Shown one piece after another: positions 6,859-45,920 of a stretch of DNA of 64,000 nucleotides. Made by a program: the position numbers and the translations under genes. The stretch is taken from the IMG/VR virus record IMGVR_UViG_3300003322_001263. One strand, written 5' to 3'. The notes under the pieces were generated by a model, which did not search any database, was not told the origin of the DNA, and was given only the letters and a program-made list of their open reading frames with translations. Numbering within the stretch: position 1 is the first letter of the stretch; the number at the start of each line of letters is the position of its first letter. Source of the stretch: an uncultured virus (IMG/VR IMGVR_UViG_3300003322_001263). Lineage: Duplodnaviria; Heunggongvirae; Uroviricota; Caudoviricetes.

Positions 6859-6866
6859 GGCCTTAC

Positions 6867-8414
6867 CTATTTTAATATAGTGTCACGAATATCTAATGCA
6901 TCTTTTTGTTGTTTTGGCAAGCTATCATATTGGTCAAGCTGTATTCTACTCCAACTAGGCTTATAACTCATATGCCTACCGTATTCTTTTATAAACTCGC
7001 GATTACCATTTTTTGCATGCCATTTACAAACTATTTGGGCAAAGCCTTTTTTGCCCTTACATTTTGCATAATCACTAAGCTCCTTTGGCGTTAACTCTTT
7101 AATATTTTTACCAACTAATCTATTATAGGCGGCATTTACTTCTACAAGTACAGTATCAATTGCCTCTTCCGGTTCATCTGTATTTATGCTTTGCCAAATA
7201 TACCCACAATTAACACATACTTTAGCTTGTGCATTGTTTATAAAATCACATATTGGGCAACGTTTAATAGGGCTTACACCCGCCTTTTTTGGTTTGCTGC
7301 GCCATAGCGTTTGCCATTCGCGTTCGTAATCCCAAGGCCAATGTTTTTTGCAATTCTGTCCATAATCAAAAACATAAAAGCACTTTTTTTTACGTTGTTC
7401 AATTGGTAAGGCAATGTCTTCTTCAAGCACACGGCTACCACGGCCAATCATTTGCAAATAAAGCGGCAAGCTACTTGTTTTGCGTAATAGGCCAATAAAA
7501 TCAATTGGCGGGAAGTCAAATCCTTTAGTAAGTATACCAACACTAATACATACGCGCGCTGGGCCGTTTGTAAATAGCATTAAATTGTAGGCTTCTCGGT
7601 GGCTACCTAACCCACTATGCACCTCAACGCAATCAATACTAGCGGCACGCAGGCGTTCCGCCGTTTGTGTGCAATGTTTTATACTACTTGTAAATATTAA
7701 TGCTTTGTTCCATTTGAAGGCCGGGTTGGTAAGATCGTCAATTATGCCATCGTATACGGCATCGGTACTAAAAACAAGTTCTTGGCTTGCTTCAGTATAT
7801 TCGCCGGTACGGTCGGTTTCAAGTTGATCAATGTTAGCGCGTTGCCGTTCCCAGTGTTTATATGGGCTAAGAAAGCCATCCAATACAAGTTCGTGCGGTT
7901 GCGGGCCAACCACCAAATGGTTATACAGTTTAACCAAGTGTTTACCCATTGGGCTACCGCTAAAACCTATCAGATATGCATTTGGTAATTGCATTAAAAT
8001 CCCTGTAGCCTCGTTTATATGGCATTCATCATTTATTATAAGTAAACCGCCATGTTCGGGCGTAACATCGTTGCTTAAGCCTATAAACTGGTCTATGAGC
8101 GATTGCCTGCGCCGCAGTGTTTGCGCCATAGCCAAATAAATGCGATGTTGCACTATTGGGGGCTTACTGCCGGGTTTAATTTCAAAGGCATGTACTTCGG
8201 CGATTAGCTGTTTATAGATCTTGCGGCTTTCAGTTATAACCAATACAGTTAAGCCCTTTTTAACGGCGTTAGCCGCGATTGTTAAAAAGGTCTTACTTTT
8301 ACCCGCGCCGGTAGCCGCGCAGCCTATAACGCGCCTGTGCGTCTTTACAGCTAAGGCCAATTCACGGTTGAATTGAACTTGGTATGGGCGTAAGCTAAAT
8401 TCCTTTTTTAACAT
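6867..8414 (-). CDS. SF2 DExH helicase with C-terminal zinc ribbon (RadD/YejH-like)
   Basis: LRPYQ, ATGAGKS, DECH, SGSP, QMIGRGSR, CPIC/CVNC. Confidence 0.92.
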   Translation of the reverse strand: MLKKEFSLRPYQVQFNRELALAVKTHRRVIGCAATGAGKSKTFLTIAANAVKKGLTVLVITESRKIYKQLIAEVHAFEIKPGSKPPIVQHRIYLAMAQTLRRRQSLIDQFIGLSNDVTPEHGGLLIINDECHINEATGILMQLPNAYLIGFSGSPMGKHLVKLYNHLVVGPQPHELVLDGFLSPYKHWERQRANIDQLETDRTGEYTEASQELVFSTDAVYDGIIDDLTNPAFKWNKALIFTSSIKHCTQTAERLRAASIDCVEVHSGLGSHREAYNLMLFTNGPARVCISVGILTKGFDFPPIDFIGLLRKTSSLPLYLQMIGRGSRVLEEDIALPIEQRKKKCFYVFDYGQNCKKHWPWDYEREWQTLWRSKPKKAGVSPIKRCPICDFINNAQAKVCVNCGYIWQSINTDEPEEAIDTVLVEVNAAYNRLVGKNIKELTPKELSDYAKCKGKKGFAQIVCKWHAKNGNREFIKEYGRHMSYKPSWSRIQLDQYDSLPKQQKDALDIRDTILK

Positions 8415-9121: not shown

Positions 9122-9422
9122 AAAGTTTATATTTAGTACAAAACCGCAATATAGCCGGTAACGTACAAAAATTATATAGCTGCCCTTCCATCTTATTATA
9201 TTGCTTAATATAGTGCTGACCTTTTTTGATCACCCAATTGTTTGCCTTTAACTGCGCAATAGCACGCAGTTCATGGAACTTAATCTTGCGTATGCGGCCA
9301 ATGCGGTCGCCAGGGAAATAACCTGCACGTATATATTCCATTGCCTCCTGTATAAATTCTGCGCTGTCGTCGTGGCGGTCAAACCGGGCTTTTCTTGTTT
9401 CGGCTGCTATTAATTGAACCAT
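9108..9422 (-). CDS. Hypothetical protein
   Basis: 104-aa ORF overlapping both neighbours. Confidence 0.55.
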   Translation of the reverse strand: MVQLIAAETRKARFDRHDDSAEFIQEAMEYIRAGYFPGDRIGRIRKIKFHELRAIAQLKANNWVIKKGQHYIKQYNKMEGQLYNFCTLPAILRFCTKYKLYGDD

Positions 9423-9970
9423 TATGAATGTAAAAATTGTTTTAATAAAAATAATGCACGTGCATAGCGTTTTTTAACTGTGCTTAATTCCACTTTTAAA
9501 GCAGTTGATATTTCGATAAACTTTAAATCGCCTAACCATCGCAATTTAAAAACTTGCTTGTGGTGGTTTGGCAATGCCTCAATACCATGATATAGGCGTT
9601 CTATTATTGCAGCTTCTTTATCTATGGCTTCAAATACTTCTGGCTGCTGTTGTATTTCCTGAATATAACGTAAAAGTATATGATCCTTCTTCTTGTTATA
9701 AATATTTACATGCCTTAAATGATCTATACAGTTGTTGCGTATTGTATGCCTTACCCATGTAGCAAGTTGTGCCGGGGTTTGAAAGCACATTGTGCCGCTC
9801 AATTGCCATAGTTTGGCAAAGCATTCGCTGCGCATATCCTTAGCTTCTTCTTCATCGTGGGTGTATTTTAATGCAACTAAAAAAGCTACTGTATAATAAT
9901 CGTTGTAAACTTTTTCAAAGGCGCGGGCATCACCTTTATTAAAGTTCTTTAATGTTTTAAGGTCTATCAT
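9422..9970 (-). CDS. ECF sigma-70 factor 1
   Basis: GDARAFEKVY, EEAKD, RNNCIDHLRH (region 2); LP..HKQVF...EIS..L.VELSTVK (region 4). Confidence 0.88.
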   Translation of the reverse strand: MIDLKTLKNFNKGDARAFEKVYNDYYTVAFLVALKYTHDEEEAKDMRSECFAKLWQLSGTMCFQTPAQLATWVRHTIRNNCIDHLRHVNIYNKKKDHILLRYIQEIQQQPEVFEAIDKEAAIIERLYHGIEALPNHHKQVFKLRWLGDLKFIEISTALKVELSTVKKRYARALFLLKQFLHS

Positions 9971-11812: not shown

Positions 11813-12352
11813 TTAAGGCATTAATTTTTTATCGTTTAATATTTTTCTTAGCTGTATTATTGCGCGTTGCTTGGTAGTACTTACCATAGTATTAGTAATG
11901 TTTAATTGTTTGGCAATTTCCGGATTGCTAAAGCCGTCCACAAATGCCAATTGAAAAACCTTTTGGCGCAATGGTGATAACTGCTTCGATTCGGCTGAAA
12001 TTTCATGCAATAATTCAGTACGTATAATGTGATTAGTTATAATATCATCGCTAGGCAGTTCATCGTTTATGCCACTTGTAATTAGTTTATGCGCCTTTAA
12101 ATGATTTTTGCATTTATTCGCCACCGTGGTATATAAATAGCCCTTTAAATAATCAAATTCAATAAATAAATTATGCCGCTCCATTATGGCGTGCAAGGCA
12201 GTTATTGCGATGTCTTTTGCTTCGTCGCGATTATTAATAATCTTAAAAGCAAAATAGCATAGGGGTTGGAAAAAAAACTTAAATACATCATTAAACGCCG
12301 TTTGTTTACTAGCGTTAAAATCTTGCATAGTTTGTTTCCCTAATTGCTGCAT
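11813..12352 (-). CDS. ECF sigma-70 factor 2
   Basis: FFQPLCYFA...DEAKDI, YLYTTVANKCKNHLK, LSPLRQKVFQL..DGFSNPEIAKQL. Confidence 0.88.
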   Translation of the reverse strand: MQQLGKQTMQDFNASKQTAFNDVFKFFFQPLCYFAFKIINNRDEAKDIAITALHAIMERHNLFIEFDYLKGYLYTTVANKCKNHLKAHKLITSGINDELPSDDIITNHIIRTELLHEISAESKQLSPLRQKVFQLAFVDGFSNPEIAKQLNITNTMVSTTKQRAIIQLRKILNDKKLMP

Positions 12353-12710: not shown

Positions 12711-13496
12711 TTATTTTAATAGGCCATCAAATAATGATATAGGCCGTGGCCCTTTCGGCGGCTGTATAAGTTTAACTTCTGTAAATTCTTTATTTTTCTT
12801 AGCCGTGTTTATCTTACAATAATCCGGGTATTTTTCGGCTAAATAATGCGCGCTATCATGTACACGTTCCTTAGTACGGGTTTCTTGCATGCCCCCCGGC
12901 TCTTTATAATAATTGGTTTTAACGCACACGTCATTTATGCGCACTACGGCACCAAACATTTTAAAATATTTTATTGTGCGCTCAAAATCTTCTTTATCTT
13001 CAAGGGTTATTAAAAGTTCTTCACAGTGGTCAATTATACACCCCCAAAAACAGCCAACAATATAACGGTTATCAGTGGTTACTTTTTTGTCCATAAAAAA
13101 ATGGTTAGCTACGGGGTACACCCCAAAAATCTTTGTATTGTGAAGTATCATCTGGGCGAACCCGTAGTCAGCCAGCAAGCCGAGATCAGTATATTCTTGT
13201 AATTTTTCTTCGCCAAAAAATAACCCTTCTACATCATCATCAAAATTCAATATATATTCACCTTCGGCAAAATACTGGTTAATAAAATTACGTTGTGCGC
13301 ATAATGTATGTGCGCCTATAACAATATTATACGCCTGTGTAGGAAATTCGGCCTTGTAGGTATCATATTCTTTTTGATCGGCAACAAAAATGTATATACG
13401 ATCTTCCGGCACGCCTACCCGGTTTAAATATGCAAGTGTTTTCTTACGCAGTGTGTTTGCACGTTTAAAGCTTGGTATTGCTATTTTGTATTCCAT
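12711..13496 (-). CDS. TET-associated (GREB1/base-J-type) GT-A glycosyltransferase
   Basis: IAIPSFKRA, QRNFI, FDDDV, EDKEDFERT, PGGMQ; near a TET gene. Confidence 0.82.
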   Translation of the reverse strand: MEYKIAIPSFKRANTLRKKTLAYLNRVGVPEDRIYIFVADQKEYDTYKAEFPTQAYNIVIGAHTLCAQRNFINQYFAEGEYILNFDDDVEGLFFGEEKLQEYTDLGLLADYGFAQMILHNTKIFGVYPVANHFFMDKKVTTDNRYIVGCFWGCIIDHCEELLITLEDKEDFERTIKYFKMFGAVVRINDVCVKTNYYKEPGGMQETRTKERVHDSAHYLAEKYPDYCKINTAKKNKEFTEVKLIQPPKGPRPISLFDGLLK

Positions 13497-14467
13497 ATGG
13501 ATGCTTTTGTTGTATAATCTTTATTTAAAAAATGTTCGTCCACTGCTTCACCAAACGTAACACTATCGCACATATGTGGGTAGTAGCCGCCCTTGTAATC
13601 GCAGTTGTGGCAAAGAAAGCAATCTCGTTTTTTATTTTGCAGCTTTAGTCGATATAAATTAAATGTATCACTGTTCCAAATTTCAACAAGCGTGTGCGTT
13701 TTTACATTGCCAAAATTGGTTTCGCCGTAAAAGTCGTTACAACAGAGTATTGCGTCGCCCAAGTAGTTTATATTCAAAAAGCGGAATGGTCGCACGCAAT
13801 GCTTATCTAAGCGAGCCGCAGGCCGAAACCCCGGCACATTCCCGCTGCGGTTGCTGAAATGGTTGGGGCCATCTACTTCACTGTCTTTTATTTGCTTTGT
13901 AATGCCATATTTGGGCACTACTTTGGCGGCGCGCTTACGTGGCCCAATATTCAAATATAGGCTTTGTGTTTGGTCTATGTGTGGTAGGGTATCCAAAAAC
14001 CCTTGTAATACTTCTTGCCGCTTTTTTGCCAACCGCACACCGTTTTCAAATATATTTTTATCTTCGCTTTCGTCTGCTGAGCTATAAATGTTTATCTGCA
14101 TTTGGTTAAGACCGGCAGTAAATAGTGCATCTATATCTGCAGCACTTTTAAAATAATCGCCATTGGTATTAATCATCTGGCAACAGCTTGGCAACATAAG
14201 GCGCGCATGATTTATAAAAAATTTTAAACGTTCGTCGCGCGTAGGTTCATTATATATGTACCATTCTATCCGGCCTTTATACTTTAATTGTTTTAATTGC
14301 TTGATGATATTAAAAACCATATCGTCATCCATAAACACATCTTCGCGCTTATGGTAGCTATTCGGGCAAAAATGGCATGTTCTATTACATTTACTAGCAA
14401 TTTCAATTGCTATCGTATTAAATAGTGCAACGTGTTGGCCTTCGTTAATATTTACTTTTTTTGGCAT
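13481..14467 (-). CDS. Radical SAM protein with SPASM/twitch domain
   Basis: CNRTCHFC, NEP, INTNG, C..PF, CCND, GNV...L.EIWN, CHNC. Confidence 0.92.
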   Translation of the reverse strand: MPKKVNINEGQHVALFNTIAIEIASKCNRTCHFCPNSYHKREDVFMDDDMVFNIIKQLKQLKYKGRIEWYIYNEPTRDERLKFFINHARLMLPSCCQMINTNGDYFKSAADIDALFTAGLNQMQINIYSSADESEDKNIFENGVRLAKKRQEVLQGFLDTLPHIDQTQSLYLNIGPRKRAAKVVPKYGITKQIKDSEVDGPNHFSNRSGNVPGFRPAARLDKHCVRPFRFLNINYLGDAILCCNDFYGETNFGNVKTHTLVEIWNSDTFNLYRLKLQNKKRDCFLCHNCDYKGGYYPHMCDSVTFGEAVDEHFLNKDYTTKASIWNTK

Positions 14468-14642
14468 TATATTCGTATTTTTGCAGGTCTCTTATTTTAT
14501 TAATAAGTAAGCTATTGTCGCGCACGCCTGTTTTAACAAGTAGGTCAAGCACGTCTTCGGTAAACAACATTATAGCCTGTTCTATAGCGCTGGCTATACC
14601 TTGGTTATGTATATGCTGCATATATTTAGTATATCGTGTCAT
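14445..14642 (-). CDS. Hypothetical protein
   Basis: Small ORF overlapping neighbours; ATG start at 14642 preferred. Confidence 0.45.
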   Translation of the reverse strand: MTRYTKYMQHIHNQGIASAIEQAIMLFTEDVLDLLVKTGVRDNSLLINKIRDLQKYEYNAKKSKY

Positions 14643-14821
14643 CTTGTTCCTTTTAAGTATGCTATTAATTGTAATTCCCAATATTCAACGCGTTTACCCC
14701 ATACGCTATCCTTATCTATAACAGTCAAATAGGTTGGCTGGCCGTATAAACATGTTATACTTATTACTTCATAACTTGTTCCATCGTTAGTAATGGCTAT
14801 CATTACTGGCTTGTTTTGCAT
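14639..14821 (-). CDS. Hypothetical protein
   Basis: 60-aa ORF overlapping neighbours. Confidence 0.45.
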   Translation of the reverse strand: MQNKPVMIAITNDGTSYEVISITCLYGQPTYLTVIDKDSVWGKRVEYWELQLIAYLKGTR

Positions 14822-15324
14822 TTTTCAAGAAATTTAAAAAGCGTAATTCTTATGTTGCCATAATAAAAACCAATATATCTATAGCGATATGTAGTAGCGA
14901 TGTTGCCAGTCCCCATACGCGTATCAGAATTACTAGTGTAAGATTTTGTATCTGCTTTTATGGGGGCAGGGTTAATTTTTTCAAGTTCTCTGTTATTTGG
15001 CCGTTTATATGGCACCTGCATTGTATCGGGCACGCTTTGCGCCTTTACAGGCAACGGTTTACTAAATATTGCAGCAATTAAAGGCAAATAAAATAACTTA
15101 TTCCATTTGCGTTTATTGGCTGGCGTTAATTCACGGTCAAGTTGGTCTTTGCGAAATTTACCGCAACCAAGCCCGTGTTTTTTAATAGATGCCAACATTT
15201 GAGCATCTGTCATATAACTATAATCAATAACCGCCTTAGCGCACACTGCGCAAAAACGCCCACCATTCGTCGGAGCCATCGAAGCTTCTGTTTGGTGGCA
15301 TTGGTTTGTTAACTGTATTTTCAT
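14803..15324 (-). CDS. Membrane protein with the Cys-motif N-terminus of Bacteroidota carboxypeptidase-regulatory/TonB-associated proteins
   Basis: CH...M.P..GGRFC..C.K.VID..MTD...CG.FR.DQL.R followed by a TM helix. Confidence 0.65.
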   Translation of the reverse strand: MKIQLTNQCHQTEASMAPTNGGRFCAVCAKAVIDYSYMTDAQMLASIKKHGLGCGKFRKDQLDRELTPANKRKWNKLFYLPLIAAIFSKPLPVKAQSVPDTMQVPYKRPNNRELEKINPAPIKADTKSYTSNSDTRMGTGNIATTYRYRYIGFYYGNIRITLFKFLEKCKTSQ

Positions 15325-15368
15325 TGTATTTAAATTTTGCAAGTAATACCACTATGCCTTTACGCGCC

Positions 15369-15512
15369 TTATTCCGCATTTAATAATTTTAAAACAAATA
15401 ATAGAATTATGGGCCAAAAAACAAAAATGCAAGCCAACTGGTAAACATAAATAATATCATCTGGCTCGTCCTTAGTTATCCATATTAACCCAAATATTGG
15501 TATCCATTTCAT
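15369..15512 (-). CDS. 47-aa membrane peptide
   Basis: MKWIPIFGLIW...LLNAE; ATGA overlap with the TET stop. Confidence 0.45.
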   Translation of the reverse strand: MKWIPIFGLIWITKDEPDDIIYVYQLACIFVFWPIILLFVLKLLNAE

Positions 15513-16378
15513 AAACGATAAAACCCGCCTTTGTCTTTTTTAATACGCGCAAGTTCTTCACTTGGCTGTTTACAGGTAATCATGTTTTCGCGATAGTACA
15601 TTACAAAGCTGATCCGTAAATAATCAGGGCTTTGATTTCTAAATGGCGTGTTGCCGTGCCACCTATGTACGTCAACAAATAACATATCGGTATTTTGCAT
15701 ATCAATGGCAACCGCATATTCAGGCAAACAAAAATAAGAGCCTTCGTAATACCCTTCACGGTAGACACATAAATTTCCGAATCCCGCTTGAAAATCTCCA
15801 CTGTCCTTATGTACTGCTGTTGTGAAGTTCTTATTGACAGTAATTGTTGTGAAACTTGTATCGTCAATAACGTAGTTGCGATTTGTCGCCTTAGCAATAT
15901 TAATCTGGCGCGAATAATGCGCCGGGCAAAGCTGTTCATATAATTGATCTATTTTTTTTACGAATGGAACACCTTCTTTAAATTGATCAAAGTACTGCCG
16001 GGCGAATGCCGTTTTACGGCAATAGGGCACCATTGCAGCCGCATCCATATATCCTACATTACCACTTTCAACATAGTTCCCTACTGTTATTTTACTTACG
16101 GTACCATCTTTTAAAATGCGTTTGTGGCTGCTACCGCTGGCCGCGCCACGGCCTTCTGTACGCTCAATACTGTTCTTAAAACTTTCGTAACCTAATTTTA
16201 GTATGTCAAAGGGTATTACCCCCTTGCGGAACTTAAAAAGCAATTGCCCCTGACTGTTATAGGCGTCGGTATCTTCTGTTATAAGTAAACTATAGTCGTT
16301 GTCGGTTAAGAACTTTTTATGGAACTTACGTTCAGCTTCGGCATCCGTATAAATGCGCTTTAATGTGATAGTTTGCAT
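15509..16378 (-). CDS. TET/JBP-family 2OG-Fe(II) dioxygenase
   Basis: FTTITVNKNF, HKD (HxD), FGNL, HGNTP, RISFVMYYRE. Confidence 0.9.
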   Translation of the reverse strand: MQTITLKRIYTDAEAERKFHKKFLTDNDYSLLITEDTDAYNSQGQLLFKFRKGVIPFDILKLGYESFKNSIERTEGRGAASGSSHKRILKDGTVSKITVGNYVESGNVGYMDAAAMVPYCRKTAFARQYFDQFKEGVPFVKKIDQLYEQLCPAHYSRQINIAKATNRNYVIDDTSFTTITVNKNFTTAVHKDSGDFQAGFGNLCVYREGYYEGSYFCLPEYAVAIDMQNTDMLFVDVHRWHGNTPFRNQSPDYLRISFVMYYRENMITCKQPSEELARIKKDKGGFYRL

Positions 16379-23976: not shown

Positions 23977-24409
23977 CCATGTTACAAGTAGCCGCCATCG
24001 TCATAGTAATTGAATTGTATACTTTTATTGCCTGTGTTATGGCAAGCCAATACCAAAAAGACTATGACAAGCTTTTAGAAAAAGATAAACATGCCGCTGA
24101 GGCTATGTTACAAGCTACTACACACGTAATTTTTTAACCTTTAAATATTATAATTATGTTCGTGAATTTGCTTGCTGCTATTGAGGCAGACATTAACCAG
24201 ACTGTGCAAAAAATGAAAGAAATAAACTGGCCTGCCAATAGCGACCAACAATACGCTGAACTTGCAATAAAAAAGCAACAGCTTGCGGACCTTGCCATGC
24301 GGTATATTAACTTAGAAAACCAATACCGACAAGTTAGTGGTGCAAATAGCATCTACTAACAGTAACAAACAAACACTTTATTTTTTTTAACTAGTAACAC
24401 AAAAAAGTT

Positions 24410-25399
24410 ATGCCTACGTACTTAAAGGCCAGCGATACCGCTATAATAGATCTACACGAGCTGGCAATACAAAACGATAATCCAAAGATTAGCCATTACC
24501 GCCAAGGTTATGAAAAGTTTTTTAATAACACGCCTTTAATTAATTCACCCGCTCAGCAATTGGATGATTTAGATAGGGTTAATTACGTAATGGGTGGGTT
24601 AAGCTGGCAGCTTGCTCAAGAGCGATGGGTTGGGCATAATACACCCATTAAGAACCAATTTTTGCGCACTGTTTTAGCAATGGAAAAACCGGCTTGCAAT
24701 AGTATGACATTGCGTTCTGGCTACGAATTACAGGTTATTAATTGGAAGGACGGCGCAATTACACCAATACATGGCCACCCCTATGGATATATGAATGTTC
24801 GCCTTGTATTTGGTAAAGTAAAACAAGCCACTTACCGGCTTGTAGATGCAACTAAAAGGCTTGTACGCCCAATTGCCTTAGAATTGCTTTGTAATACCAA
24901 TGATATATTAAGCGATGGCTATAGCGATTATAAAGGCGTTACAGACGGTGCTTTTATACACGAACTTACCTTTTTAGAGCCCAGTGCAACGTTGCACCTT
25001 GTGCCGGAACATCCATCCGATGCGGCCAATAACATCTTTATAAAAGAAGAATTTGGGTTTAAGCATGTTAATTTTCAATTGGAAGATTTTGTTGCTATAA
25101 GTCTTAACGCTACATTAAAATTGATGCCCGGCGATGTGATTTTAGTGCGCAGCAATACTACCAAAGATTTAGGTGATCACTTTTATGTTATTACCGATGC
25201 CCCGCGTCAAAAAAAGGCGGGCCTCCGTCCGGTTGGTACAGCTATACAAGCCAGCGAAGATTTTAGTAAACTGTTAGATACAGTAGAACCGCAAGGTGAT
25301 AATATTCGCATAATGCGCTTAATGCCTCGTGTGCGTGATTGGTTTTTGGAGTGGCATGGTATACGGGTACAAAAAACACTTGTTTTCCCAAAACCATAA
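24410..25399 (+). CDS. Cysteine-dioxygenase-like cupin with extra C-terminal domain
   Basis: YEL..I.W..G..TPIHGH, G.V....Y, FIHEL, TLHL. Confidence 0.7.
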   Translation: MPTYLKASDTAIIDLHELAIQNDNPKISHYRQGYEKFFNNTPLINSPAQQLDDLDRVNYVMGGLSWQLAQERWVGHNTPIKNQFLRTVLAMEKPACNSMTLRSGYELQVINWKDGAITPIHGHPYGYMNVRLVFGKVKQATYRLVDATKRLVRPIALELLCNTNDILSDGYSDYKGVTDGAFIHELTFLEPSATLHLVPEHPSDAANNIFIKEEFGFKHVNFQLEDFVAISLNATLKLMPGDVILVRSNTTKDLGDHFYVITDAPRQKKAGLRPVGTAIQASEDFSKLLDTVEPQGDNIRIMRLMPRVRDWFLEWHGIRVQKTLVFPKP

Positions 25400-25411
25400 A
25401 TAACCATTATT

Positions 25412-25702
25412 ATGAAACGGTTCTTAATTTGGGTTAATATACCCTACCAAATTGCCAACCATGTAGTAGGCAAACACCATACACAAGCCCATAGGCGTAT
25501 AGCTGGCTTTTTTGTAATGTTTTGCGGTGTAGGTATAGCGCATTTTGCACAGCATGAATTTAACGCTGTAGTCGGTTTATTTGGCGACCTTATAGGTTAT
25601 AGCATACACGCAACCGGTTTTATGCCATACGCTACCGCAATTGAAAACAGCATTATTGAACACCAAAAAACAGAACAAAATGAACACCAACCATGCAACT
25701 AA
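25412..25702 (+). CDS. Small His-rich membrane protein
   Basis: Two hydrophobic helices; between the cupin and the isocyanide synthase. Confidence 0.6.
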   Translation: MKRFLIWVNIPYQIANHVVGKHHTQAHRRIAGFFVMFCGVGIAHFAQHEFNAVVGLFGDLIGYSIHATGFMPYATAIENSIIEHQKTEQNEHQPCN

Positions 25703-26585
25703 TCAAATATTAGATACGTTTAGCCGTTACCGTATGGCACCAACTGCCATAGATCAATATGAAACAACCGGCAAGCTAATACTTGCCCAACGCATAGATG
25801 GCTTTGTAAATAGCCAGCAAACAATACGGTTTGCCATGCTTGGCTTCCCGTTTAAAAGCACTAATACGCGCGATAAAGTACTTGGCACTTTACCAGATTT
25901 AGGCGAACAGCTTACCGTTGAAAATTTTGAAGCCTTTAATGCCGACGTTAAAAAGGTATATGCGCCGGGGGTTAAAATAGTGGTAGCTAGTGATGGATAT
26001 GTATTTAATGACCTATTAAGCATTAGCGATTCTATAGTGCGAACATACGCGCAGGTAAGTAGTAATTTCAGCGGAGACAACACCATGGAAATAATAGACC
26101 TTAATCGCTTTTATAGCGATGGCAGTATGGCCGATAAACGCAACCGGCTTATGCAACAATTTGGCTATACTTGGGAAAAAATGGAACAAGAAATACTTTT
26201 TAACCCCGATGTTAACTTTTTATACCGGGGGATGCTAAAGTTTATGAGCGAAGAACTTGCATGGCATGACTTTCCAAGCAAAAACCAGCGCGAAAAGGCT
26301 GCTAAAAAACTTGTGCGTGAAATGATGCTACGCAACGAAGCCTATAATTTGCTTGTGCGCAAGGAACTTGCCGACCACATACGGCTAAGTATGCACCCAA
26401 GTGTAAATAATGGTTATAAATACAGTTTTAAACTGATCCCGGGTGAGCATACCAATCATAGCGCGTGGCATAGTGCTATTGTTATGCATAACGGACAAGC
26501 TGCTACTATGCATAAAAAAGATGCTCTTGCCGCAGGTTACCAATTAGTATATAAAGACGGCCAGCCTTACAATTTTGAATATTAA
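25680..26585 (+). CDS. Isocyanide (isonitrile) synthase, Dit1/PvcA family
   Basis: GFPFKS.N..KVLG.LPDLGE, VYAPG, SDGYVFNDLL, IRLSMHP, AWH. Confidence 0.9.
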   Translation: MNTNHATNQILDTFSRYRMAPTAIDQYETTGKLILAQRIDGFVNSQQTIRFAMLGFPFKSTNTRDKVLGTLPDLGEQLTVENFEAFNADVKKVYAPGVKIVVASDGYVFNDLLSISDSIVRTYAQVSSNFSGDNTMEIIDLNRFYSDGSMADKRNRLMQQFGYTWEKMEQEILFNPDVNFLYRGMLKFMSEELAWHDFPSKNQREKAAKKLVREMMLRNEAYNLLVRKELADHIRLSMHPSVNNGYKYSFKLIPGEHTNHSAWHSAIVMHNGQAATMHKKDALAAGYQLVYKDGQPYNFEY

Positions 26586-26604
26586 ACAAACTAGAGTGTA
26601 TAAC

Positions 26605-26928
26605 ATGAAAAAGTTCAAACAAGAAGTGGCAACAGTTGCCTTTGATTATAATGAAGACGGTACTTTAGAAAGTGCGGTATTGTGGCCAAAGTTAAAAGTA
26701 ACCAAAGACGAAGTTATTGATCAACTTGGCAACTGTAAAAACAAAACTATAGACGAAGTTACACAAGCGGCTGAATTAATGCTTGGGGCTTTTTTTGCAC
26801 GCACAAACGATGTTGAACTTCGTGATATGGAAACCACCGAATTAAAGGCCGAAGTTATTGCCGCAACAAAGTATAACGACGGCACGTTGAGGCACGTAGA
26901 AATACGGTTTATTTTTAAGGGCAAATAA
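26605..26928 (+). CDS. Hypothetical protein
   Basis: ORF with an internally duplicated YN.DGTL motif. Confidence 0.55.
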   Translation: MKKFKQEVATVAFDYNEDGTLESAVLWPKLKVTKDEVIDQLGNCKNKTIDEVTQAAELMLGAFFARTNDVELRDMETTELKAEVIAATKYNDGTLRHVEIRFIFKGK

Positions 26929-27294
26929 CTAACATGCGCGCGTAAAAACGCGCGCATGTGTTTTTAAATTTTAAAATTATGGGATTTTATATCAATCAAA
27001 TTAATGGCGTAGATGCGCCCCGTAAAGGCAAAGCTGAATTTATAGCAGCCAATACAAATACATTATTTATTGAACCGCCTACTGAATGGCGAGAAGGATT
27101 AGTTTGCGTAATAGATAACGGTGTATTTGATGCTGCTGGGTATGCGTATGACGAAGACGAAATGCGCGTATTTTTATCGCCTGATCATAATAGGCCACGC
27201 CCGCGGCAATGGCTATTAGTTCCAGAAGCCAAGGCAATAGTTGGATATAAAGAGTAATTAACTAACATGCACATGCGTAAAAGTGTGCGCATGT
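26926..27294 (+). repeat. Two related hairpins (TAACTAACATGC...GCATGT) flanking ORF 26979..27257
   Basis: 26926-26959 and 27259-27294. Confidence 0.65.
26979..27257 (+). CDS. Hypothetical phage protein
   Basis: MGFYIN...LVCVIDNG.FDAAGYAY. Confidence 0.65.
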   Translation: MGFYINQINGVDAPRKGKAEFIAANTNTLFIEPPTEWREGLVCVIDNGVFDAAGYAYDEDEMRVFLSPDHNRPRPRQWLLVPEAKAIVGYKE

Positions 27295-27327
27295 ATTTAA
27301 AATTTAACTTCACTAAAAAAATACAAA

Positions 27328-27651: not shown

Positions 27652-27706
27652 TTGATTTTTATTTTTATAAAATACTGTAATATTGCTGCCTGCAATAAAC
27701 TATAGT

Positions 27707-28204
27707 ATGAACGAACAAGAATTTATTAAGAATATACAAGCGCATGAACAAGATATTCATAAAGTGTGCCGTATTTATTATAAAGAGTATAGCCGGGAGG
27801 ATTTAATGCAAGAAATTATTGCAGAAACGTGGAGGTCGCTAGGCAAATGGAAAAATAATTGTAAATTTAGCACATGGCTGCAAACAATAGCGCGTAACGT
27901 TTGCATAAATACGTTACGTAAAAAAGCAACACAGCCTAAAATTATTTTATGTGGCGACTACAATAATGAAATTAAATACGAAGATAACAGTGACGACCTT
28001 ATTAAACAATTACAGGTACATGAATGTTATAATAGTATTATAAACACAATAGAAAAACCATACAGATTGCTTTTCCATAAATATGTATATGGTGCAACCT
28101 TCAAGGAATTAGAACAACTATCTGGCATAAACGCAAATGCCTTGCGGGTTAAAATATATCGCATAAAAAAGCAAATAAAAATTTTCGCTAACCAAGCTCT
28201 GTGA
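27707..28204 (+). CDS. ECF sigma-70 factor 3
   Basis: IHKVCRIY, EDLMQEI...W, KFSTWL..IARN.CI..LRK, SGINANALRVKIYRIK. Confidence 0.88.
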   Translation: MNEQEFIKNIQAHEQDIHKVCRIYYKEYSREDLMQEIIAETWRSLGKWKNNCKFSTWLQTIARNVCINTLRKKATQPKIILCGDYNNEIKYEDNSDDLIKQLQVHECYNSIINTIEKPYRLLFHKYVYGATFKELEQLSGINANALRVKIYRIKKQIKIFANQAL

Positions 28205-28796: not shown

Positions 28797-29309
28797 ATGA
28801 CGCATACTATACCGCAAGACAAAAAAAATTGGCTATTAAATACAGCATGGAAAAAGCTTACGATTAAGCAAATAGCAGCCGAATCAAATATTAATGTTAG
28901 TTTAATTAGTAAATTTTATAAAGAAAACAATATAGAACCTGTTAAAAGGCGTGATGTTATAGCCAGCGGGTTAATAGATTTGATTAATACTGGTAACCAC
29001 GAATGTAAAAGCGTTTCTGATTTGGCGTTAATATTTAATTGTAGTACTACATTGATTAAGGGTATTATAGACGAGTATAAGCTGCAATTCAATATACGTA
29101 AGTATAAAAACGGGAGCGAAAAGATATCAAATATTAACGAAAATCGTTTACAAGCTGCTAAAGCGCGTGACGAGCATATATTAAATATGCGCAAAGAACG
29201 CGCTAATCATGCCGTATACACTCAAAGCGGTAGCCAGCTTATAGACGACTGCCGTGGCTTAAAAACTACACTGCGCCTAAAAACATATCTTACAAATGCG
29301 AACCTTTGA
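28797..29309 (+). CDS. Tandem HTH protein
   Basis: LTIKQIAAESNINVSLIS and SVSDLALIFNCSTTLI. Confidence 0.65.
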   Translation: MTHTIPQDKKNWLLNTAWKKLTIKQIAAESNINVSLISKFYKENNIEPVKRRDVIASGLIDLINTGNHECKSVSDLALIFNCSTTLIKGIIDEYKLQFNIRKYKNGSEKISNINENRLQAAKARDEHILNMRKERANHAVYTQSGSQLIDDCRGLKTTLRLKTYLTNANL

Positions 29310-29862
29310 ACAAGTAGTAAAAAAATGGTGGCCATACGTATGTTCTATAGCTAATAACAAAATAGGTTCTGATGCTGGCGACGTAGCTAGTAAAGTATTT
29401 GAAAAAATGCATAATGTATGGAAGAGCGATTACGATGCTGATTGGCATATAATTAGTTGGCTTAAAATAACTACAACCAATATGTGCGTAGATCATATTA
29501 GGCGCGCCAATTACAGAAAAAAAGTTATACTTAATTATACAGAACAGATTTATGACGGTAAAGAGCCAAGCACAGAACAAGATAACAAAGAAAAAGAACT
29601 GCGCGAAGTTGAACAATATGTAATTGGCTTTTTACAATCCGAAATTGAAAAACTGCCTGAAAAAACAAAACAGGTTTTCAGGCTGCATTGCATTGAACAG
29701 CTTAATTATAGGCAGATAGCAGAAAAATTGCATATAGATAAGAACACCGTAACGCATCAAATGAAAACCGCGCGAACCATATTGTTGGTAAACGTTATAG
29801 CTAATGAAAATGCTGCGCCAATGTTAGCGCAGCAATTACTCTTTAAATCCGGTGTAAAATAA
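29296..29862 (+). CDS. ECF sigma-70 factor 4
   Basis: AGDVASKVF, SWL....NMCVDHIRR, LPEKTKQVF.L....LNYRQIAEKL.I..NTV. Confidence 0.88.
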   Translation: MRTFEQVVKKWWPYVCSIANNKIGSDAGDVASKVFEKMHNVWKSDYDADWHIISWLKITTTNMCVDHIRRANYRKKVILNYTEQIYDGKEPSTEQDNKEKELREVEQYVIGFLQSEIEKLPEKTKQVFRLHCIEQLNYRQIAEKLHIDKNTVTHQMKTARTILLVNVIANENAAPMLAQQLLFKSGVK

Positions 29863-33429: not shown

Positions 33430-35796
33430 TCAATATTTTAATACAACCACATTATATGTTGCAGACGCTATGTCAAACGAACCTCCTGATGTATTTTGCA
33501 ATTGAATAGTAACTGTATTGGTTGCCGAAACATAAGCGAAATATACTTCTCCATTACTATACGAACCACTTGTTTTGCTTATTGTAACAGGGTCACCTAA
33601 TGCGGCACCGGTGACTGTAAAGCTTGTTGAGTTACTAGAATTTGCGCTTATGCTGGGCGGATCCCACGTAACCGAGCCTTTTAATCCAATCAAATTAACA
33701 TCTTTTGCAGCTATTTTGTAAAGCACATTCGCATTAGTAGTAGGGTTATATTCACCCACAGCTACAAGAGTGTCAACTCCAGATGTTTTTATGGGCAATC
33801 GCGCTGTTATACTATCTGCAAGCAAATCAATATAGGTTTTATTCGATGCATTGGTAGGATTGCCAACATTTATAACTGATAACCCGCTTGAATGCCCTAT
33901 ATTTTGCGAACTTATTTGTATGAAATTATTTTGGAAAGTAATAGCTTGGTTAAGTGAATCGGAGGCGTCGTTTGCCTTACGTACAACATTGCCAAGCCAC
34001 AAGGGAAACCCCGGCCCGGCTATCATGTCTATAAATGTTCTCTGTCGTCTACCAGAATTTAACCCACGGGAAGTGACAAAATGATAACTAACGCTATCCA
34101 ATGTAACACCATGTCCATATCCGTTATGCGTTCTATCGCCTGTTAAATTTAAATCAGTATTGAAATAGTTTTGCGAACTATTGCCACCTGCGCGCTTATA
34201 AATTGTTCCATCGCCCGAAACAACAAGGGAAGGATAGCTTGTGTCAATAGTTGAAAAACTAGCGCCATAATTTTGCCATTTCCATTGACCAGATGTATTA
34301 AGTCTTGACACGTTATTTGGCCCAATCCACCAATCATGATCTATATTAAATGGCGCAATATACTCCATACTATTACGAGAACCATTAGACGCAATACTAA
34401 AACCTGCATATCCTGCGCTGGCAACCTGATATAAATAAAATTTAAGATGCGTAGAATCACCAAAAGCAGCATTATTATAACCACCGCCTAATGAAAAATA
34501 CGATGGCGTTGGTGTTCCTACACTGCCTGTATTTTGATCAAGCCGTAAAGACATAACACTTGAAATCATGTCTACCCCCAAGCTCATTCTAGCTTGACTA
34601 TTGCCATTGATGAACCAATTAAAGTTAGATCCGGCCCCGCCTGCAAAATTATTAAACCCTCCTGAACTTACGCCGAACCCGAAATTATTAGTGGTAGTAC
34701 CATCGCAATAAAGGCATAATTTAATACCTGCTGGATCGTACGCACTACCATTCCAATACGAACCCCCATAATTAGCGGCCATTGGGTTGCTTATAGATGC
34801 CGGTGTTTTTGTGCCAACTAGTATATGTTCATTTGCACCGACGTATTTACTTATGGCAAATTCTATATACTTATAGCCATCGTCTGTTGGATGAATGTTA
34901 TCCCCGCTAATAAGTGTTGTATCATTCCTTAGTTGAGCAGTAAAAATATCAAAATATAATGTACCCCATTTAGTAGCAGTTTCCTGAGTGGCAAAAACAA
35001 AATCAAGATGTCTTTGAAGTGTTGGTGCTGCATTTCCGGTAATGCTGGCATAGGCCGCATATCCTGCTGTGCCTATCCAATAGGGTGGTATAATTAATAT
35101 TTCGTTAGACGACCACCCTTTATTTATGCAATAATGCATTACACTGTCGTAGTCGGCTTTATAATTCGTTACATTGTATGCGGGTGCCGTTTGGCCCATA
35201 TCATTAAGCCCAAAAGCAAATACCAGCATTTTGATTTTAAACGATTTTTGCGGCACATTCGGCAAATTATCAATCATGTTTGGGCTAGACATGTAATCTA
35301 TTGGCACCCGTTTTTGCAATGTAGTACCGGCCACCCCCATATTTTTTTCAACGCATCCCATACGGTAAGAAAAAAGAGTTGTCCACCTATACCCGGAAGT
35401 AGCCCCACTACCAGCGGTATAACTATCGCCAAAGAAATAAATAGTATCTGTTAAGGTTGTTCTAAATGGATTATGCAATAGCGGGTATTGGTGCAATGCG
35501 TTTACAATATTACTATCTATTAATGCAGCCCCGCCGCTACTAGAAATCATAAATGTATCTTTGCCGATAAAAAGCGTATCGCCACTGCGTCTAGGTTTTT
35601 TACCTACATACACGCCACCGCCTATATTGGTAAGTATGCCGCCAATAGTATTCCTGCTGCTGTCTTTAAGCTTCAAAAATGCACTACCCCCAACCTTTTC
35701 AATTAATACCGTATCCGCTCTTAAAGGGAGCGTACTTTGGCTATAAACGACAACTGAGCCGATTAAGCTGAACAGGAATAAAATAACTACTTTCAT
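33430..35796 (-). CDS. Tail fibre/spike-like protein with SGNH esterase domain and N-terminal signal peptide
   Basis: FGDSYT, GVAGT, FGLND, DNIHP; C-terminal WDPPSI...VTGAALGD domain; [13 protein letters not shown]...YSQ. Confidence 0.75.
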
Positions 35797-40622: not shown

Positions 40623-40826
40623 ATGCCCGGTTATACGTTTAAGAAAATTCCCCAAGACATTTATAAATTCATTTTATCTAAACAAAATAAACTCAAGCAA
40701 CAGCGCGGCACCAATAAGTTTAGCTTTGAGACTGCCGCCTATGCATTATTGCGTGAGCACCCGGAGTTTTCGGAATTTAAAAACAAACAAGAACAAGAAA
40801 TAAATGACTCATGCAAGCTTATGTAG
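40623..40826 (+). CDS. Small DNA-binding protein (RHH-like)
   Basis: YTFKKIP.DIY...SFETAAY.LLRE. Confidence 0.5.
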   Translation: MPGYTFKKIPQDIYKFILSKQNKLKQQRGTNKFSFETAAYALLREHPEFSEFKNKQEQEINDSCKLM

Positions 40827-41565
40827 TGGTATTGGGGGTTTTGATTTAGCGGCGCAATGGTGCGATTGGGAAAACGTATTCAATTGTGACATTGACGATT
40901 TTTGCAGAAAAGTCCTTAGGAAAAATTTTCCACATGTTAGACAATTTATTGATTTACGAAATACTGATTTTTCTGAATACAAAAATAAAATAGATGTCTT
41001 ATCAGCAGGCTTCCCATGCCAACCTTTTTCAATTGCCGGAAAACAATTGGGAATTAAGCATGAGCATTACTTACTTGAATATTTGTGCATCGCATTTGGA
41101 CAGTTACTACCAAGATGGATCGTTTGCGAAAACGTTCCTAATATACTTCAACCAAAATTTAAACCTACTATCGAATACCTATTCTCATATTTGGAGAGTA
41201 AAAATTATACATTCAAGATATTTAATGTGCCAGCTTCTGCTGCGGGAGCGGCGCACAAAAGGGAAAGGGTCTGGATTATTGCCCACGCCAACGGCATCGG
41301 ATTCAAAGGGGGAAAGCAAAGGCTGCAAGCGCCATATGAGCAAATCAATGATAAGACGTATTGCACTCCAACATTGTTACAGCCAGGTAGGTTCGGAAAC
41401 AGCATACCCACACCCAGAATTTTTAGAACAAGTGATGGGTTTCCCGATGGGGTGGACAGAATTAAATCATTAGGTAATGCCATACTGCCGCAAATTGCCT
41501 ATGGTTTTTTTAAAACTATACAACAAATAGAAGATGAAATTAAGCCTTTGCATCACGACGTATAA
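40804..41565 (+). CDS. DNA (cytosine-5)-methyltransferase, alpha chain (no clear motif IX)
   Basis: SLCSGIGG (I), GFPCQPFS (IV), ENV (VI), HKRERVW (VIII), RIKSLGNA (X). Confidence 0.92.
   Translation: MTHASLCSGIGGFDLAAQWCDWENVFNCDIDDFCRKVLRKNFPHVRQFIDLRNTDFSEYKNKIDVLSAGFPCQPFSIAGKQLGIKHEHYLLEYLCIAFGQLLPRWIVCENVPNILQPKFKPTIEYLFSYLESKNYTFKIFNVPASAAGAAHKRERVWIIAHANGIGFKGGKQRLQAPYEQINDKTYCTPTLLQPGRFGNSIPTPRIFRTSDGFPDGVDRIKSLGNAILPQIAYGFFKTIQQIEDEIKPLHHDV
40994..41473 (+). CDS. Overlapping-frame C5-MTase beta chain (TRD segment + motif IX)
   Basis: LLPTPTASD and HPEFLEQVMGFPMGWT in a second frame inside the MTase gene. Confidence 0.7.
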   Translation: MSYQQASHANLFQLPENNWELSMSITYLNICASHLDSYYQDGSFAKTFLIYFNQNLNLLSNTYSHIWRVKIIHSRYLMCQLLLRERRTKGKGSGLLPTPTASDSKGESKGCKRHMSKSMIRRIALQHCYSQVGSETAYPHPEFLEQVMGFPMGWTELNH

Positions 41566-42271
41566 CCGGTACTTGTTAACAATTGCAAGTTTTGCTAAGG
41601 TTATAAACGATCCACGTATAGACGATATAGTTATACTTGACGATTGTAGCGCCGACCGTAGCTTTTTTGCATTGCAAAAAAGCTTCAAAGAGAATGCAAA
41701 AGTTCGCTTAATGACTCAAGCCAAAAATAAGGGCATGAGTCAGAACAAGCGCGACGCTATTGCTGCTGCCAAAAACGAATGGGTTATTATTTTTGATAGC
41801 GATAACGTTATAGACCCAACGTATTTGGATGCCTTTTATAAATACATAACCGACAACAAAGGTATAACCAGAATCCCGGCAGGGGATGATAATTTTATTT
41901 TTTGTCCTGATTTTGCCAAGCCAAATTTTGATTATCGCGCATTCGCGCAAGGCGCTCCAACTCATGGCATTTATGACGCCAAAGATGCAGCCCGCTGCAT
42001 AATAGACAGCCGTTTTAATTGTTTAATGAACACATGCAATTATATTGTTAACCGCGATTTTTATTTGGGTACTTATAGATACAACTCTGAGCATATTGCC
42101 AGCGATACAATTTGGCACAATTACAACCATTTAAAAGCCGGTGGCAAATTTGCAATTGTGCCGGGAATGCAATACTTCCACCGCGTGCATGATGGCAGTG
42201 GCTTCAAACAAGGTATAGAATACAATCTGCAAAAAACAGAACAGGTTCGTCAGCTAATTAAACAATTATAA
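41534..42271 (+). CDS. Glycosyltransferase family 2
   Basis: CITTYNR, ILDDCSAD, IFDSDN. Confidence 0.9.
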   Translation: MKLSLCITTYNRYLLTIASFAKVINDPRIDDIVILDDCSADRSFFALQKSFKENAKVRLMTQAKNKGMSQNKRDAIAAAKNEWVIIFDSDNVIDPTYLDAFYKYITDNKGITRIPAGDDNFIFCPDFAKPNFDYRAFAQGAPTHGIYDAKDAARCIIDSRFNCLMNTCNYIVNRDFYLGTYRYNSEHIASDTIWHNYNHLKAGGKFAIVPGMQYFHRVHDGSGFKQGIEYNLQKTEQVRQLIKQL

Positions 42272-42283
42272 AATCACACAACA

Positions 42284-42538
42284 ATGTCAAAGAACATCAA
42301 CGTGGAAGCGCACGTTAACCGCTACCTTGTTACCGAACTGAGCGATGTAGTTTCTTTAATTGGTGCATTACAAGCACTTGTTGAAAAACGTAAGGGCGAT
42401 GCAATTGCCGAATACGAAGCAAAACTCAATGCGCTTAGAAATGGTGAAGTGCCTGTAACCGAAAAAGTGGCTCCCGTTAAAAAGAAAACCCGCGGTGGCA
42501 AACCTATTGCAGAAACTAACGAAGAAGCTACTGCATGA
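42284..42538 (+). CDS. Hypothetical protein
   Basis: 84-aa ORF. Confidence 0.55.
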   Translation: MSKNINVEAHVNRYLVTELSDVVSLIGALQALVEKRKGDAIAEYEAKLNALRNGEVPVTEKVAPVKKKTRGGKPIAETNEEATA

Positions 42539-43284
42539 TAATTCCAAAGCTATATGGGCGGCTCGGCAATCAGTGCTTTCAGATTGCCGCCGCTATAGCT
42601 CATGCCAATAAAATGGAAACAACATGGGCTATCCCAAGGCGAACAGAAGACTTGCGTTATTGGCCAAATTATTTTTTAAATGAAGTGCCGCTTAATAATA
42701 GAAGACATTTTTTCGATGTAAATAATTACAATGAATTGCGGCATTGTTATGACCCTTTACCTACTACCAAAGACTTAACATTAAATGGCTATTTTCAAAG
42801 CGAAAAATATTGGCCTGCGCTTGAGCAAAAAACAATCATAGGCAATGCATTAGGGTTTCATTGCAATAAACAAGATTACATAGCCGTACATGTGCGCCGG
42901 GGCGATTATGTTAATCTATATAGCGAAAAATGGCCCCCATTGGACATGGATTATTATAACCAAGCTATAGAATATTTTATAGAACATGGTTATGATAATT
43001 TTAGAGTTTATAGCGATGATATTAATTATTGCAAGCAGGAATTTTGCAATAACATAGGCTGGAATGTAACATATAGTAGTATCAAAGACCCGTTATCCGA
43101 TATGCGCGACATGTATAATGCCGGCGGGTTTATAATAAGCAACAGTACATTTAGTTTATTCCCTGCTTTATTACGATTAGACAACCCCGTTGTTGTTGCG
43201 CCTGCTGAACACCGTTGGTTTGGCCCGGATAATGCACATTTGGAAACCATTGATTTAATGCCTGAGCGGTTTATAAAAATATAA
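42535..43284 (+). CDS. Glycosyltransferase family 11 (alpha-1,2-fucosyltransferase-like)
   Basis: GRLGNQCFQ, GYFQSEKY, HVRRGDY, YSDD, SNSTFS. Confidence 0.92.
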   Translation: MIIPKLYGRLGNQCFQIAAAIAHANKMETTWAIPRRTEDLRYWPNYFLNEVPLNNRRHFFDVNNYNELRHCYDPLPTTKDLTLNGYFQSEKYWPALEQKTIIGNALGFHCNKQDYIAVHVRRGDYVNLYSEKWPPLDMDYYNQAIEYFIEHGYDNFRVYSDDINYCKQEFCNNIGWNVTYSSIKDPLSDMRDMYNAGGFIISNSTFSLFPALLRLDNPVVVAPAEHRWFGPDNAHLETIDLMPERFIKI

Positions 43285-43287
43285 TTT

Positions 43288-43494
43288 ATGACAAACACAT
43301 TAAAACCAATAGAAGAACTTAATGAAGGGCATTGGCATGAAGCCTGTGACCGCACCCATTGCGTAATTGAAATTATTGATAACATGCTGGTTAATCATCC
43401 TGCAATAGCTCAAGACCCCGTATTATTACAGCAAGTACAATACGCGCAGGAAATACTTGGAACGGTCTACCAAGCAGCCGGTGAAAAATTTTAA
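43288..43494 (+). CDS. Hypothetical protein
   Basis: HWHEACDRTH...HPAI. Confidence 0.6.
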   Translation: MTNTLKPIEELNEGHWHEACDRTHCVIEIIDNMLVNHPAIAQDPVLLQQVQYAQEILGTVYQAAGEKF

Positions 43495-43496
43495 CT

Positions 43497-45034: not shown

Positions 45035-45039
45035 TAGCC

Positions 45040-45884: not shown

Positions 45885-45920
45885 TTTTAACTACACATAT
45901 AAATGTTAAAAATTCACAAC

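Follow-up and report, generated by a model that had tools for sequence, protein, structure and literature searches.

A candidate isonitrile biosynthesis cassette with a thiol-dioxygenase-like partner enzyme in an uncultivated phage

Introduction

Can a phage make an isonitrile of its own, and with which enzymes would it do so? The question is raised by a stretch of 64,000 nucleotides from an uncultured virus of the Caudoviricetes (IMG/VR record IMGVR_UViG_3300003322_001263), here called the window, in which a gene for a synthase of the Dit1/PvcA/IsnA family lies in a compact run of genes together with one for a cupin protein that resembles cysteine dioxygenase (CDO). Isonitriles, also called isocyanides, are rare and reactive natural products, for whose selective ligation tetrazine and azomethine-imine probes have been described (bioRxiv 10.1101/711853; PMC13005658). 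In the IsnA-type route the synthase usually pairs with a 2-oxoglutarate oxygenase. As far as the abstracts of this literature state, two biosynthetic strategies for isonitriles are recognised, and the IsnA-type route is always given with Trp or Tyr. This route is described as leading from ribulose-5-phosphate and L-Trp or L-Tyr to the isonitrile (PMC7949033), and isonitriles are characterised as antimicrobial and copper-binding in the CASP15 paper (PMC10792529).

A preliminary description of the window, made from its letters and open reading frames (ORFs), had proposed a cassette of three genes at this place, encoding a CDO-like cupin, a His-rich membrane protein and the synthase. Followed up here by computational analysis, the locus is best read, with a probability of roughly 0.6, as a phage-borne biosynthetic operon in which the synthase, a thiol-dioxygenase-type cupin, the C-terminal domain of the cupin protein (hereafter the C-domain) and a further protein of 107 amino acids would together give a small, reactive, metal-binding product of the isonitrile type. 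What is new here are the partners and the viral carrier, whereas the enzyme family is a known one.

The isonitrile synthase

On sequence grounds, the third gene of the trio clearly encodes an isonitrile synthase of the Dit1/PvcA/IsnA family. Its product matches PF05141 with an E value of 3.4e-61 and 207.6 bits, against a cut-off of 26.4, over profile positions 1-272 of 273, and a profile built from 27 sequences of its clade recovers the solved isonitrile synthases 9dh4 and 9dhn (7.6e-50), 9dhm (8.3e-50) and PvcA 3e59 (3.5e-43). The bacterial comparison set was drawn from 401 sampled genomes, five of which hold a PF05141 protein above cut-off; one of the five is a metagenome-assembled genome (MAG) that carries a relative of the window locus (L010, described below), and the other four served as controls. 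By aligning seven cupin-linked synthases with four bacterial IsnA/PvcA-like proteins, 26 invariant columns were found, among them K59, S60, K66, D73, E76, S104-D105-G106, R235, S237, H239 and W263-H264. Both the score and these columns bear out the earlier statement that the gene encodes a Dit1/PvcA-family synthase with its family motifs intact.

With the bacterial IsnA/IsnB and PvcA/PvcB systems (rhabduscin- and pvc-type) the phage synthases share the family and its invariant residues, but they differ from them in sequence, in clade and in their viral setting. The window synthase shares 25-28% identity with the four canonical bacterial IsnA/PvcA-like proteins, and a motif that reads RSWAW, and is thus aromatic, in the bacterial proteins reads RNEAY in the phage synthase clade. 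In a tree of 51 rows obtained by a quick IQ-TREE search, the window sequence groups with 17 sequences from related loci and 26 database homologues in a single clade, which sits on a long stem and excludes the four bacterial sequences, with a support of 100 in the Shimodaira-Hasegawa-like approximate likelihood ratio test (SH-aLRT).

The longer homologues found in databases are fungal fusions with TauD, nonribosomal peptide synthetase-like (NRPS-like) or ABC parts, at 24-33% identity; none of those found is a synthase fused to a full cupin, which is weak evidence of absence. The PF05141 domain is what the phage enzymes have in common with the fungal isocyanide synthases (Dit1, and the synthases fused to TauD, NRPS-like or ABC-transporter domains). 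The fungal fusions are without cupin or C-domain, whereas the phage synthases are single-domain proteins or are fused to the C-domain only.

The cupin protein and its C-domain

Searched alone, the 329-residue product of the first gene gives marginal matches to CDO_I (PF05995; E 0.19, 11.7 bits, cut-off 23) and to PCO_ADO (PF07847; E 0.083, 12.8 bits, cut-off 27). A profile of 80 members of its family reaches cysteine dioxygenase chains at an E value of 1.6e-6; 14 of these 80 match CDO_I at E <=0.01, and the copy in a related IMG/VR locus, L002, scores 23.0 bits against that model. By searching 1.84 billion representatives with a profile, 231 clusters were obtained at E <=0.001, of which 104 at <=1e-30, and these clusters include separate N-terminal (about residues 1-213) and C-terminal (about 214-327) forms of the protein.

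The AlphaFold model of the protein has a predicted local distance difference test score (pLDDT) of 94.7 and a predicted template modelling score (pTM) of 0.91. In a fold comparison by VIA against 48,161 PDB representatives, its first seven matches are without exception thiol or thione dioxygenases, namely B. subtilis CDO 4qm8 (Z 12.8; root-mean-square deviation 3.0, 148 residues aligned), 3-mercaptopropionate dioxygenase (MDO; Z 12.5), mercaptosuccinate dioxygenase (Z 12.1), rat CDO (Z 11.9), PCO4 (Z 10.8), ADO (Z 10.3) and ergothioneine dioxygenase (Z 9.7), and generic cupins come at Z <=9.1. The Foldseek matches listed are again all thiol dioxygenases (CDO, PCO, ADO and MDO), with a best E value of 1.1e-7, and Atlas likewise points to a thiol-dioxygenase-like cupin. 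Through the family profile, VIA and Foldseek, the CDO-like identity first suggested for this protein is confirmed. The viral structures of BFVD yielded generic cupins only, with a TM score by query of <=0.26, and no equivalent of the two-domain arrangement.

The motifs of the phage cupin family can be laid on those of CDO in two places. H121 and H123, each present in 79 of 80 members, form an HxH motif that aligns with CDO H86 and H88, and S/T194 (73/80) and H196 (76/80), the Ser/Thr-x-His motif of the family, align with CDO S153 and H155. H184 (79/80), on the next motif strand, is a likely candidate for the third metal ligand, and R86, kept in 78 of 80 members, may be the counterpart of the substrate-binding Arg of CDO. 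Beyond the fold that it has in common with the thiol dioxygenases (CDO, the 3-mercaptopropionate, mercaptosuccinate and ergothioneine enzymes, and ADO/PCO, at VIA Z 9.7-12.8), the phage protein is unlike them in having an extra N-terminal helical region and the C-domain, and in adjoining an isonitrile synthase.

The C-domain, which gives a pLDDT of 92.2 when modelled alone, is predicted to be a small beta-barrel with helices and carries the motif GDVxLVRS...GDH...KxHGLRPQ. No recognisable relative was found in the PDB, the best VIA match having a Z of 3.8 (small SH3/Sm-like barrels) and the best Foldseek match an E value of 0.18. Its occurrence in the sequences compared is that of a mobile module: it stands alone as a gene in L001, is present as an additional copy in L021, appears by eye to be doubled in P0134 and P0135, and forms the N-terminal part of a fusion with the synthase in the database proteins P0113 and P0246 (hhalign 99.7% and 99.9%, respectively). 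Because the C-domain is found fused to either enzyme, the cupin and the synthase would be expected to act together.

A cassette conserved across loci

The linkage of cupin and synthase recurs outside the window. A scan of IMG/VR with the single synthase sequence as query gave no match, and with a synthase alignment as query it gave six loci (L001-L006) whose synthases are 43-56% identical to that of the window. Among 185,579 species, each represented by one genome, a scan found a single locus, L010, on a 30.8-kb MAG contig; its neighbours there are RIIB-like, RusA-like, exonuclease VIII-like, MazG and ThyX-like genes. A full cupin lies upstream in five of the six loci that were found through the synthase and have upstream DNA (L002-L005 and L010), and the C-domain alone in the sixth, L001; L006 is cut by the end of its contig.

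From the side of the cupin, a metagenome scan with a 10-sequence alignment as query gave 23 loci, of which two repeat contigs of IMG/VR and another five diverge strongly, leaving 16. The synthase is directly downstream in all 13 of these that have usable DNA (the copy in L022 being internally deleted), and of the others two end inside the cupin and one retains 237 nt only. In the divergent L026, L028 and L033, PF05141 proteins of 413-440 residues (46-58 bits) are found next to cupin parts, full or split, and the gene order differs. Across the related contigs the order and content of the cassette are kept although the cupins are 27-35% identical to the window's and the synthases no closer than stated above.

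The conserved unit is not quite the trio first described. It is made up of cupin, C-domain and synthase together with a fourth gene (26605-26928) that was absent from that trio. A gene for a protein of about 110 residues follows the synthase in 19 of the 19 distinct contigs with sequence there, with one ORF in between in L002. F64, E71 and D74 are invariant in this 107-residue protein, for which there is no PDB sequence match below E 0.1, no consistent Pfam family and no usable feature match in Atlas, its structural matches there being under threshold. As side observations, the intervening ORF of L002 (10888-11631, 247 aa) has a faint methyltransferase match (E 0.009) and was seen in this contig only, and in L022 (964-1647) the internally deleted synthase, which keeps profile positions 3-131, is joined in frame to the ~110-residue gene.

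The His-rich protein of 96 residues is optional. It is present in 7 of the 24 distinct contigs, many of which are incomplete, and it takes three positions: between cupin and synthase (the window, L011, L015 and L017), before the cupin (L001 and L018) or after the fourth gene (L020). It has nine His, of which H17, H23, H27 and H66 are invariant in seven homologues, and hydrophobic segments at about residues 28-48 and 50-71, with Kyte-Doolittle means over 19 residues of 1.2-1.4. From this profile it is probably a membrane hairpin; the location is given as probable rather than certain because both segments are just moderately hydrophobic. It reaches no Pfam family at the curated cut-off, its sole Pfam match (AC11) being at chance level, and none of the 96-residue, the 107-residue and the cupin protein has a match in PHROGs, NCBIfam or PADLOC. 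Of the earlier picture, the small, His-rich and hydrophobic character of this protein and the presence and linkage of the three genes in the window stand; its membrane nature is probable, and its place as a fixed member of the cassette has to be given up.

The oxygenase of the IsnA-type route has no counterpart here. TauD (PF02668) was found neither among the window ORFs scanned nor among 127 flanking proteins of seven related loci, as expected if the TauD-type partner has been replaced by the cupin, which had already been suggested. In the bacterial PF05141 control loci, TauD lies directly downstream of the synthase in three of four, and the TauD-bearing loci go on with glycosyltransferase or FAD-monooxygenase and MFS genes; no cupin, C-domain, ~110-residue protein or small His protein was found within 5 kb of the four. 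The phage cassette is therefore like IsnA/IsnB and PvcA/PvcB in that a synthase is tightly paired with an iron oxygenase in one operon, and unlike them in the partner, which is a thiol-dioxygenase-type cupin upstream in the phage and a TauD Fe/2-oxoglutarate oxygenase downstream in the IsnA/IsnB type. It also differs in the C-domain and the 107-residue protein, constant in the phage cassette and absent from the four bacterial loci examined. Phylogeny and neighbourhood, which had been named as a check on the proposal, thus speak for a separate synthase clade and a recurrent cupin linkage, with the original trio as the part that is not constant.

Layout of the cassette

The three genes of the trio are tightly linked, as had been noted, with a gap of 12 nt between the first two and an overlap of 23 nt between the second and third, all on the plus strand (Table 1). 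In several other loci, for example L003, L010, L015 and L027, start and stop codons of cassette genes overlap or abut. In the window, the synthase frame is also open at a TTG at 25641, upstream of the ATG. The transcription unit probably spans from about 24140 to 26959, because an AT-rich motif ending in ATG lies at one end and a terminator-like hairpin at the other. The small ORF of 67 codons near the upstream end has no homologue in L001-L006 and no Pfam match.

The AT-rich motif has three copies in the window (24140, 26963 and 28781; 84-100% identity), and those at 26963 and 28781 lie at the starts of the next two gene units. The element that contains the hairpin (26917-26974) has a 71%-identical copy at 27250-27307, after the next gene. 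As an observation on the region as a whole, the repeated hairpin element and the repeated AT-rich motif bound successive small gene units.

Table 1. Features of the cassette and DNA modification genes in the window
Feature	Position	Strand	Basis or remark
Cupin + C-domain gene	24410-25399	+	ORF, 329 aa
N-terminal cupin domain, residues 1-213	24410..25048	+	CDO profile match and predicted fold
C-domain, ~115 residues	25049..25399	+	Confident model, without recognisable relative
Optional His-rich protein	25412-25702	+	ORF, 96 aa; two hydrophobic helices
Isonitrile synthase, Dit1/PvcA/IsnA family	25680-26585	+	PF05141; 301 aa from ATG
107-aa protein gene	26605-26928	+	ORF from ATG; 19 nt past synthase stop
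Intrinsic-terminator-like hairpin and T-run	26932-26959	+	12 bp, 8 G-C; four bases after stop of 107-aa gene
Small upstream ORF, 67 aa, possibly in operon unit	24156..24359	+	Outside conserved cassette
AT-rich motif TTTAAAT.TTA.AATTATG	24140..24158	+	Repeat family D5; possible start of transcription unit
TET/JBP oxygenase	15509-16378	-	PF12851 9.6e-26
Radical SAM/SPASM protein	13481-14467	-	
TET-associated glycosyltransferase	12711-13496	-	PF20691
C5-cytosine DNA methylase	40804-41565		

The phage and its other genes

The carrier of the cassette is a phage by its gene content. PHROG matches in the window are to the large and small terminase, DNA polymerase/primase, helicase, processivity factor, portal, tail fibre and endolysin; phage genes flank the module on both sides, and the G+C content is flat at 0.36-0.42. 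A host chimera, which had been named as one outcome that would undo the proposal, is not what this setting suggests. The best match of the large terminase is at 39% with Pseudanabaena phage Pan5, the portal matches Polaribacter phages only, at 21%, and for the primase the matches are in Cellulophaga and Arthrobacter phages, at 23-30%, so that by sequence the phage is distant from cultured ones. A Bacteroidota host can be put forward as a weak inference, because of these terminase, portal and primase matches and because Shine-Dalgarno sequences are missing; by eye, none was seen before any of the four genes of the cassette. The window stretch was found in one DNA sequencing run, possibly that of the source sample, and no RNA run was listed for it. 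In the protein database the synthase of the window is assigned to a contig of 73,393 nt.

Several other genes of the window may be recorded. On the minus strand, at 12711-16378, a DNA hypermodification set is formed by the TET/JBP oxygenase, the radical SAM/SPASM protein and the glycosyltransferase (Table 1); a weak PHROG match that would make the gene at 15509-16378 DpdA-like was rejected, since PF12851 identifies it as the TET/JBP oxygenase. There are four genes for sigma factors of the sigma-70/extracytoplasmic function (ECF) type, two on the minus strand (9422-9970 and 11813-12352) and two on the plus strand (27683-28204 and 29296-29862), the latter just downstream of the isonitrile cassette. 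An island at 41534-49635 holds GT2, GT11, FkbM-type methyltransferase, GT47-like, GT7-like and SLOG/YpsA-like genes, with a tRNA-Ala(CGC) inside it at 45805-45882, and a 788-residue tail-fibre-like protein with a GDSL esterase/lipase domain is encoded on the minus strand at 33430-35796.

What the cassette may make

If the cassette is a biosynthetic operon of the isonitrile type, its parts can be assigned putative roles. If it works as the IsnA/PvcA enzymes do, the synthase would form an isonitrile from the primary amine of a substrate of the amino-acid type, with ribulose-5-phosphate as the donor of the carbon. The cupin, which its fold and motifs suggest to be an Fe(II) enzyme, would replace IsnB/PvcB and perform an O2-dependent step on the same substrate, either before or after the isonitrile is formed. 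Thiols or thiones are the substrates of all the structures nearest to the cupin, and the favoured guess is therefore that its substrate contains sulfur and resembles cysteine. The fusions suggest that the C-domain ties the cupin to the synthase, and, together with the overlapping stop and start codons, that the parts may form a complex in which the 107-residue protein would be an obligatory subunit or a helper. The infected cell would thus come to contain a small molecule that is reactive and binds metals, with the poisoning of host metalloenzymes, metal handling and competition as candidate uses; by analogy, the antimicrobial and copper-binding properties of isonitriles would fit the ideas of metal capture, inhibition of metal-dependent defence enzymes and signalling with which the locus was first presented.

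Several observations weigh against this reading. In HMMER, H184 of the cupin is aligned with CDO E143, three residues past H140, and hhalign of the family with two bacterial CDO-like proteins spans the first motif only and ends before the H184 region, so that of the three-His cupin described at first the HxH pair lines up with CDO and the third His is offset in the HMMER alignment. The Ser-His-Tyr triad of CDO is incomplete, the Y157 column holding Leu, Val, Phe or Ile, with Val in the window. In these two respects, and for the window protein also in falling below the Pfam cut-offs, the phage cupin is unlike the thiol dioxygenases. The window copy has further peculiarities: residue 130 is Val (codon GTT, 24797-24799), the only such copy of 80 where 73 have Glu and five Asp, and at residue 197 it has Leu, against Tyr or Phe in 72 of 80 relatives. 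Since V130 and L197 depart from near-invariant residues, this particular cupin may be altered or impaired.

Further points against the reading come from one of the related loci and from the sources of the contigs. In L001 a His protein, a standalone C-domain, the synthase and the ~110-residue gene are present (5636-7584), and no cupin domain is detectable in 17 kb; as the synthase is kept there without the cupin domain, the cupin step would be dispensable in at least one phage. The viral status of the IMG/VR contigs is a prediction, and L010 sits in a bacterial MAG bin. Finally, the synthase scores 120.9 bits against the NCBIfam PvcA equivalog model NF045653, whose cut-off is 600, and is thus a family member and not a PvcA equivalog; because this score is so far under the cut-off, the substrate need not be tyrosine.

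This last point bears directly on the alternative that a tyrosine or tryptophan isonitrile is made, with the cupin as a 2-oxoglutarate-independent stand-in for IsnB/PvcB that would produce a vinyl isonitrile by oxidative decarboxylation. The best solved relatives of the synthase are indeed L-Tyr/L-Trp isonitrile synthases, one homologue carries the JGI label 'L-tyrosine isonitrile synthase', and the cupin fills the slot that TauD holds in most of the bacterial controls. This alternative is nevertheless considered unlikely, in view of the low identity to the bacterial IsnA/PvcA-like proteins and the long separate branch, the equivalog score, the change from RSWAW to RNEAY in the phage clade and the fact that the nearest structures of the cupin all act on sulfur compounds.

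ADO and PCO act on the N-terminal cysteine of proteins, and both are among the top structural matches of the cupin. This opens an alternative in which no free isonitrile is released and the cassette modifies another amine, be it the N-terminus of a protein or peptide, a nucleotide or a hypermodified phage DNA base, or in which an N-formyl compound is the end product. The C-domain would suit such a role as a small SH3/Sm-like barrel, a kind that often binds macromolecules, although its matches to these barrels are weak (Z <=3.8), and the TET/JBP hypermodification set is encoded in the same window. Yet the synthase retains the residues that are invariant in true isonitrile synthases, the TET genes are 8 kb off on the opposite strand and have no counterparts in the flanks of the other loci, and no protein with an N-terminal Cys that could serve as substrate is encoded in the operon; we regard this alternative as improbable, to much the same degree as an aromatic isonitrile. 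That the cassette is a passenger or an artefact, either a host-derived moron without a phage role or an assembly chimera, is suggested by the unusual substitutions in the window cupin, the deleted synthase of the L022 relative and the presence of the stretch in only one sequencing run, and is very improbable given a module conserved in order and content across contigs with synthases 43-56% and cupins 27-35% identical to the window's, even G+C with phage genes on both sides, and a scan of 185,579 species whose single locus is itself phage-like in context.

Conclusion

The isonitrile-type operon set out above has no published phage counterpart that could be found. Searches by tblastn of the synthase and of the cupin against 50,697 GenBank phage records gave 0 matches each, and no description of a phage isonitrile synthase, or of an isonitrile synthase with a CDO-like partner, was found in the openly accessible literature searched. 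The statement in the preliminary description that no phage isocyanide pathway had been described is upheld on both counts.

A broader and more specific proposal can be attached to the finding, to which we would give somewhat less than even odds: that a large group of uncultivated phages associated with soil and roots makes an isonitrile of its own in the course of infection, by means of an enzyme assembly not described before, in which a synthase is docked through the C-domain to a thiol-dioxygenase-like iron enzyme and assisted by an obligatory subunit of about 110 residues, and that the product may be a sulfur-oxidised or otherwise new isonitrile acting on metalloproteins of the host or of competitors. 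Were this so, no isonitrile pathway would have been known from viruses before, and the IsnA family would gain a new partner chemistry.

If the reading of the cassette as an isonitrile-type operon is true, viruses would join the producers of this class of compounds. It would also point to new chemistry upstream or downstream of isonitrile formation, in a compact set of three to four genes that is directly expressible and assayable. For the biology of phages, whose auxiliary genes usually concern nucleotides and central metabolism, the cassette would then represent a clear case of biosynthesis of the secondary-metabolite type.

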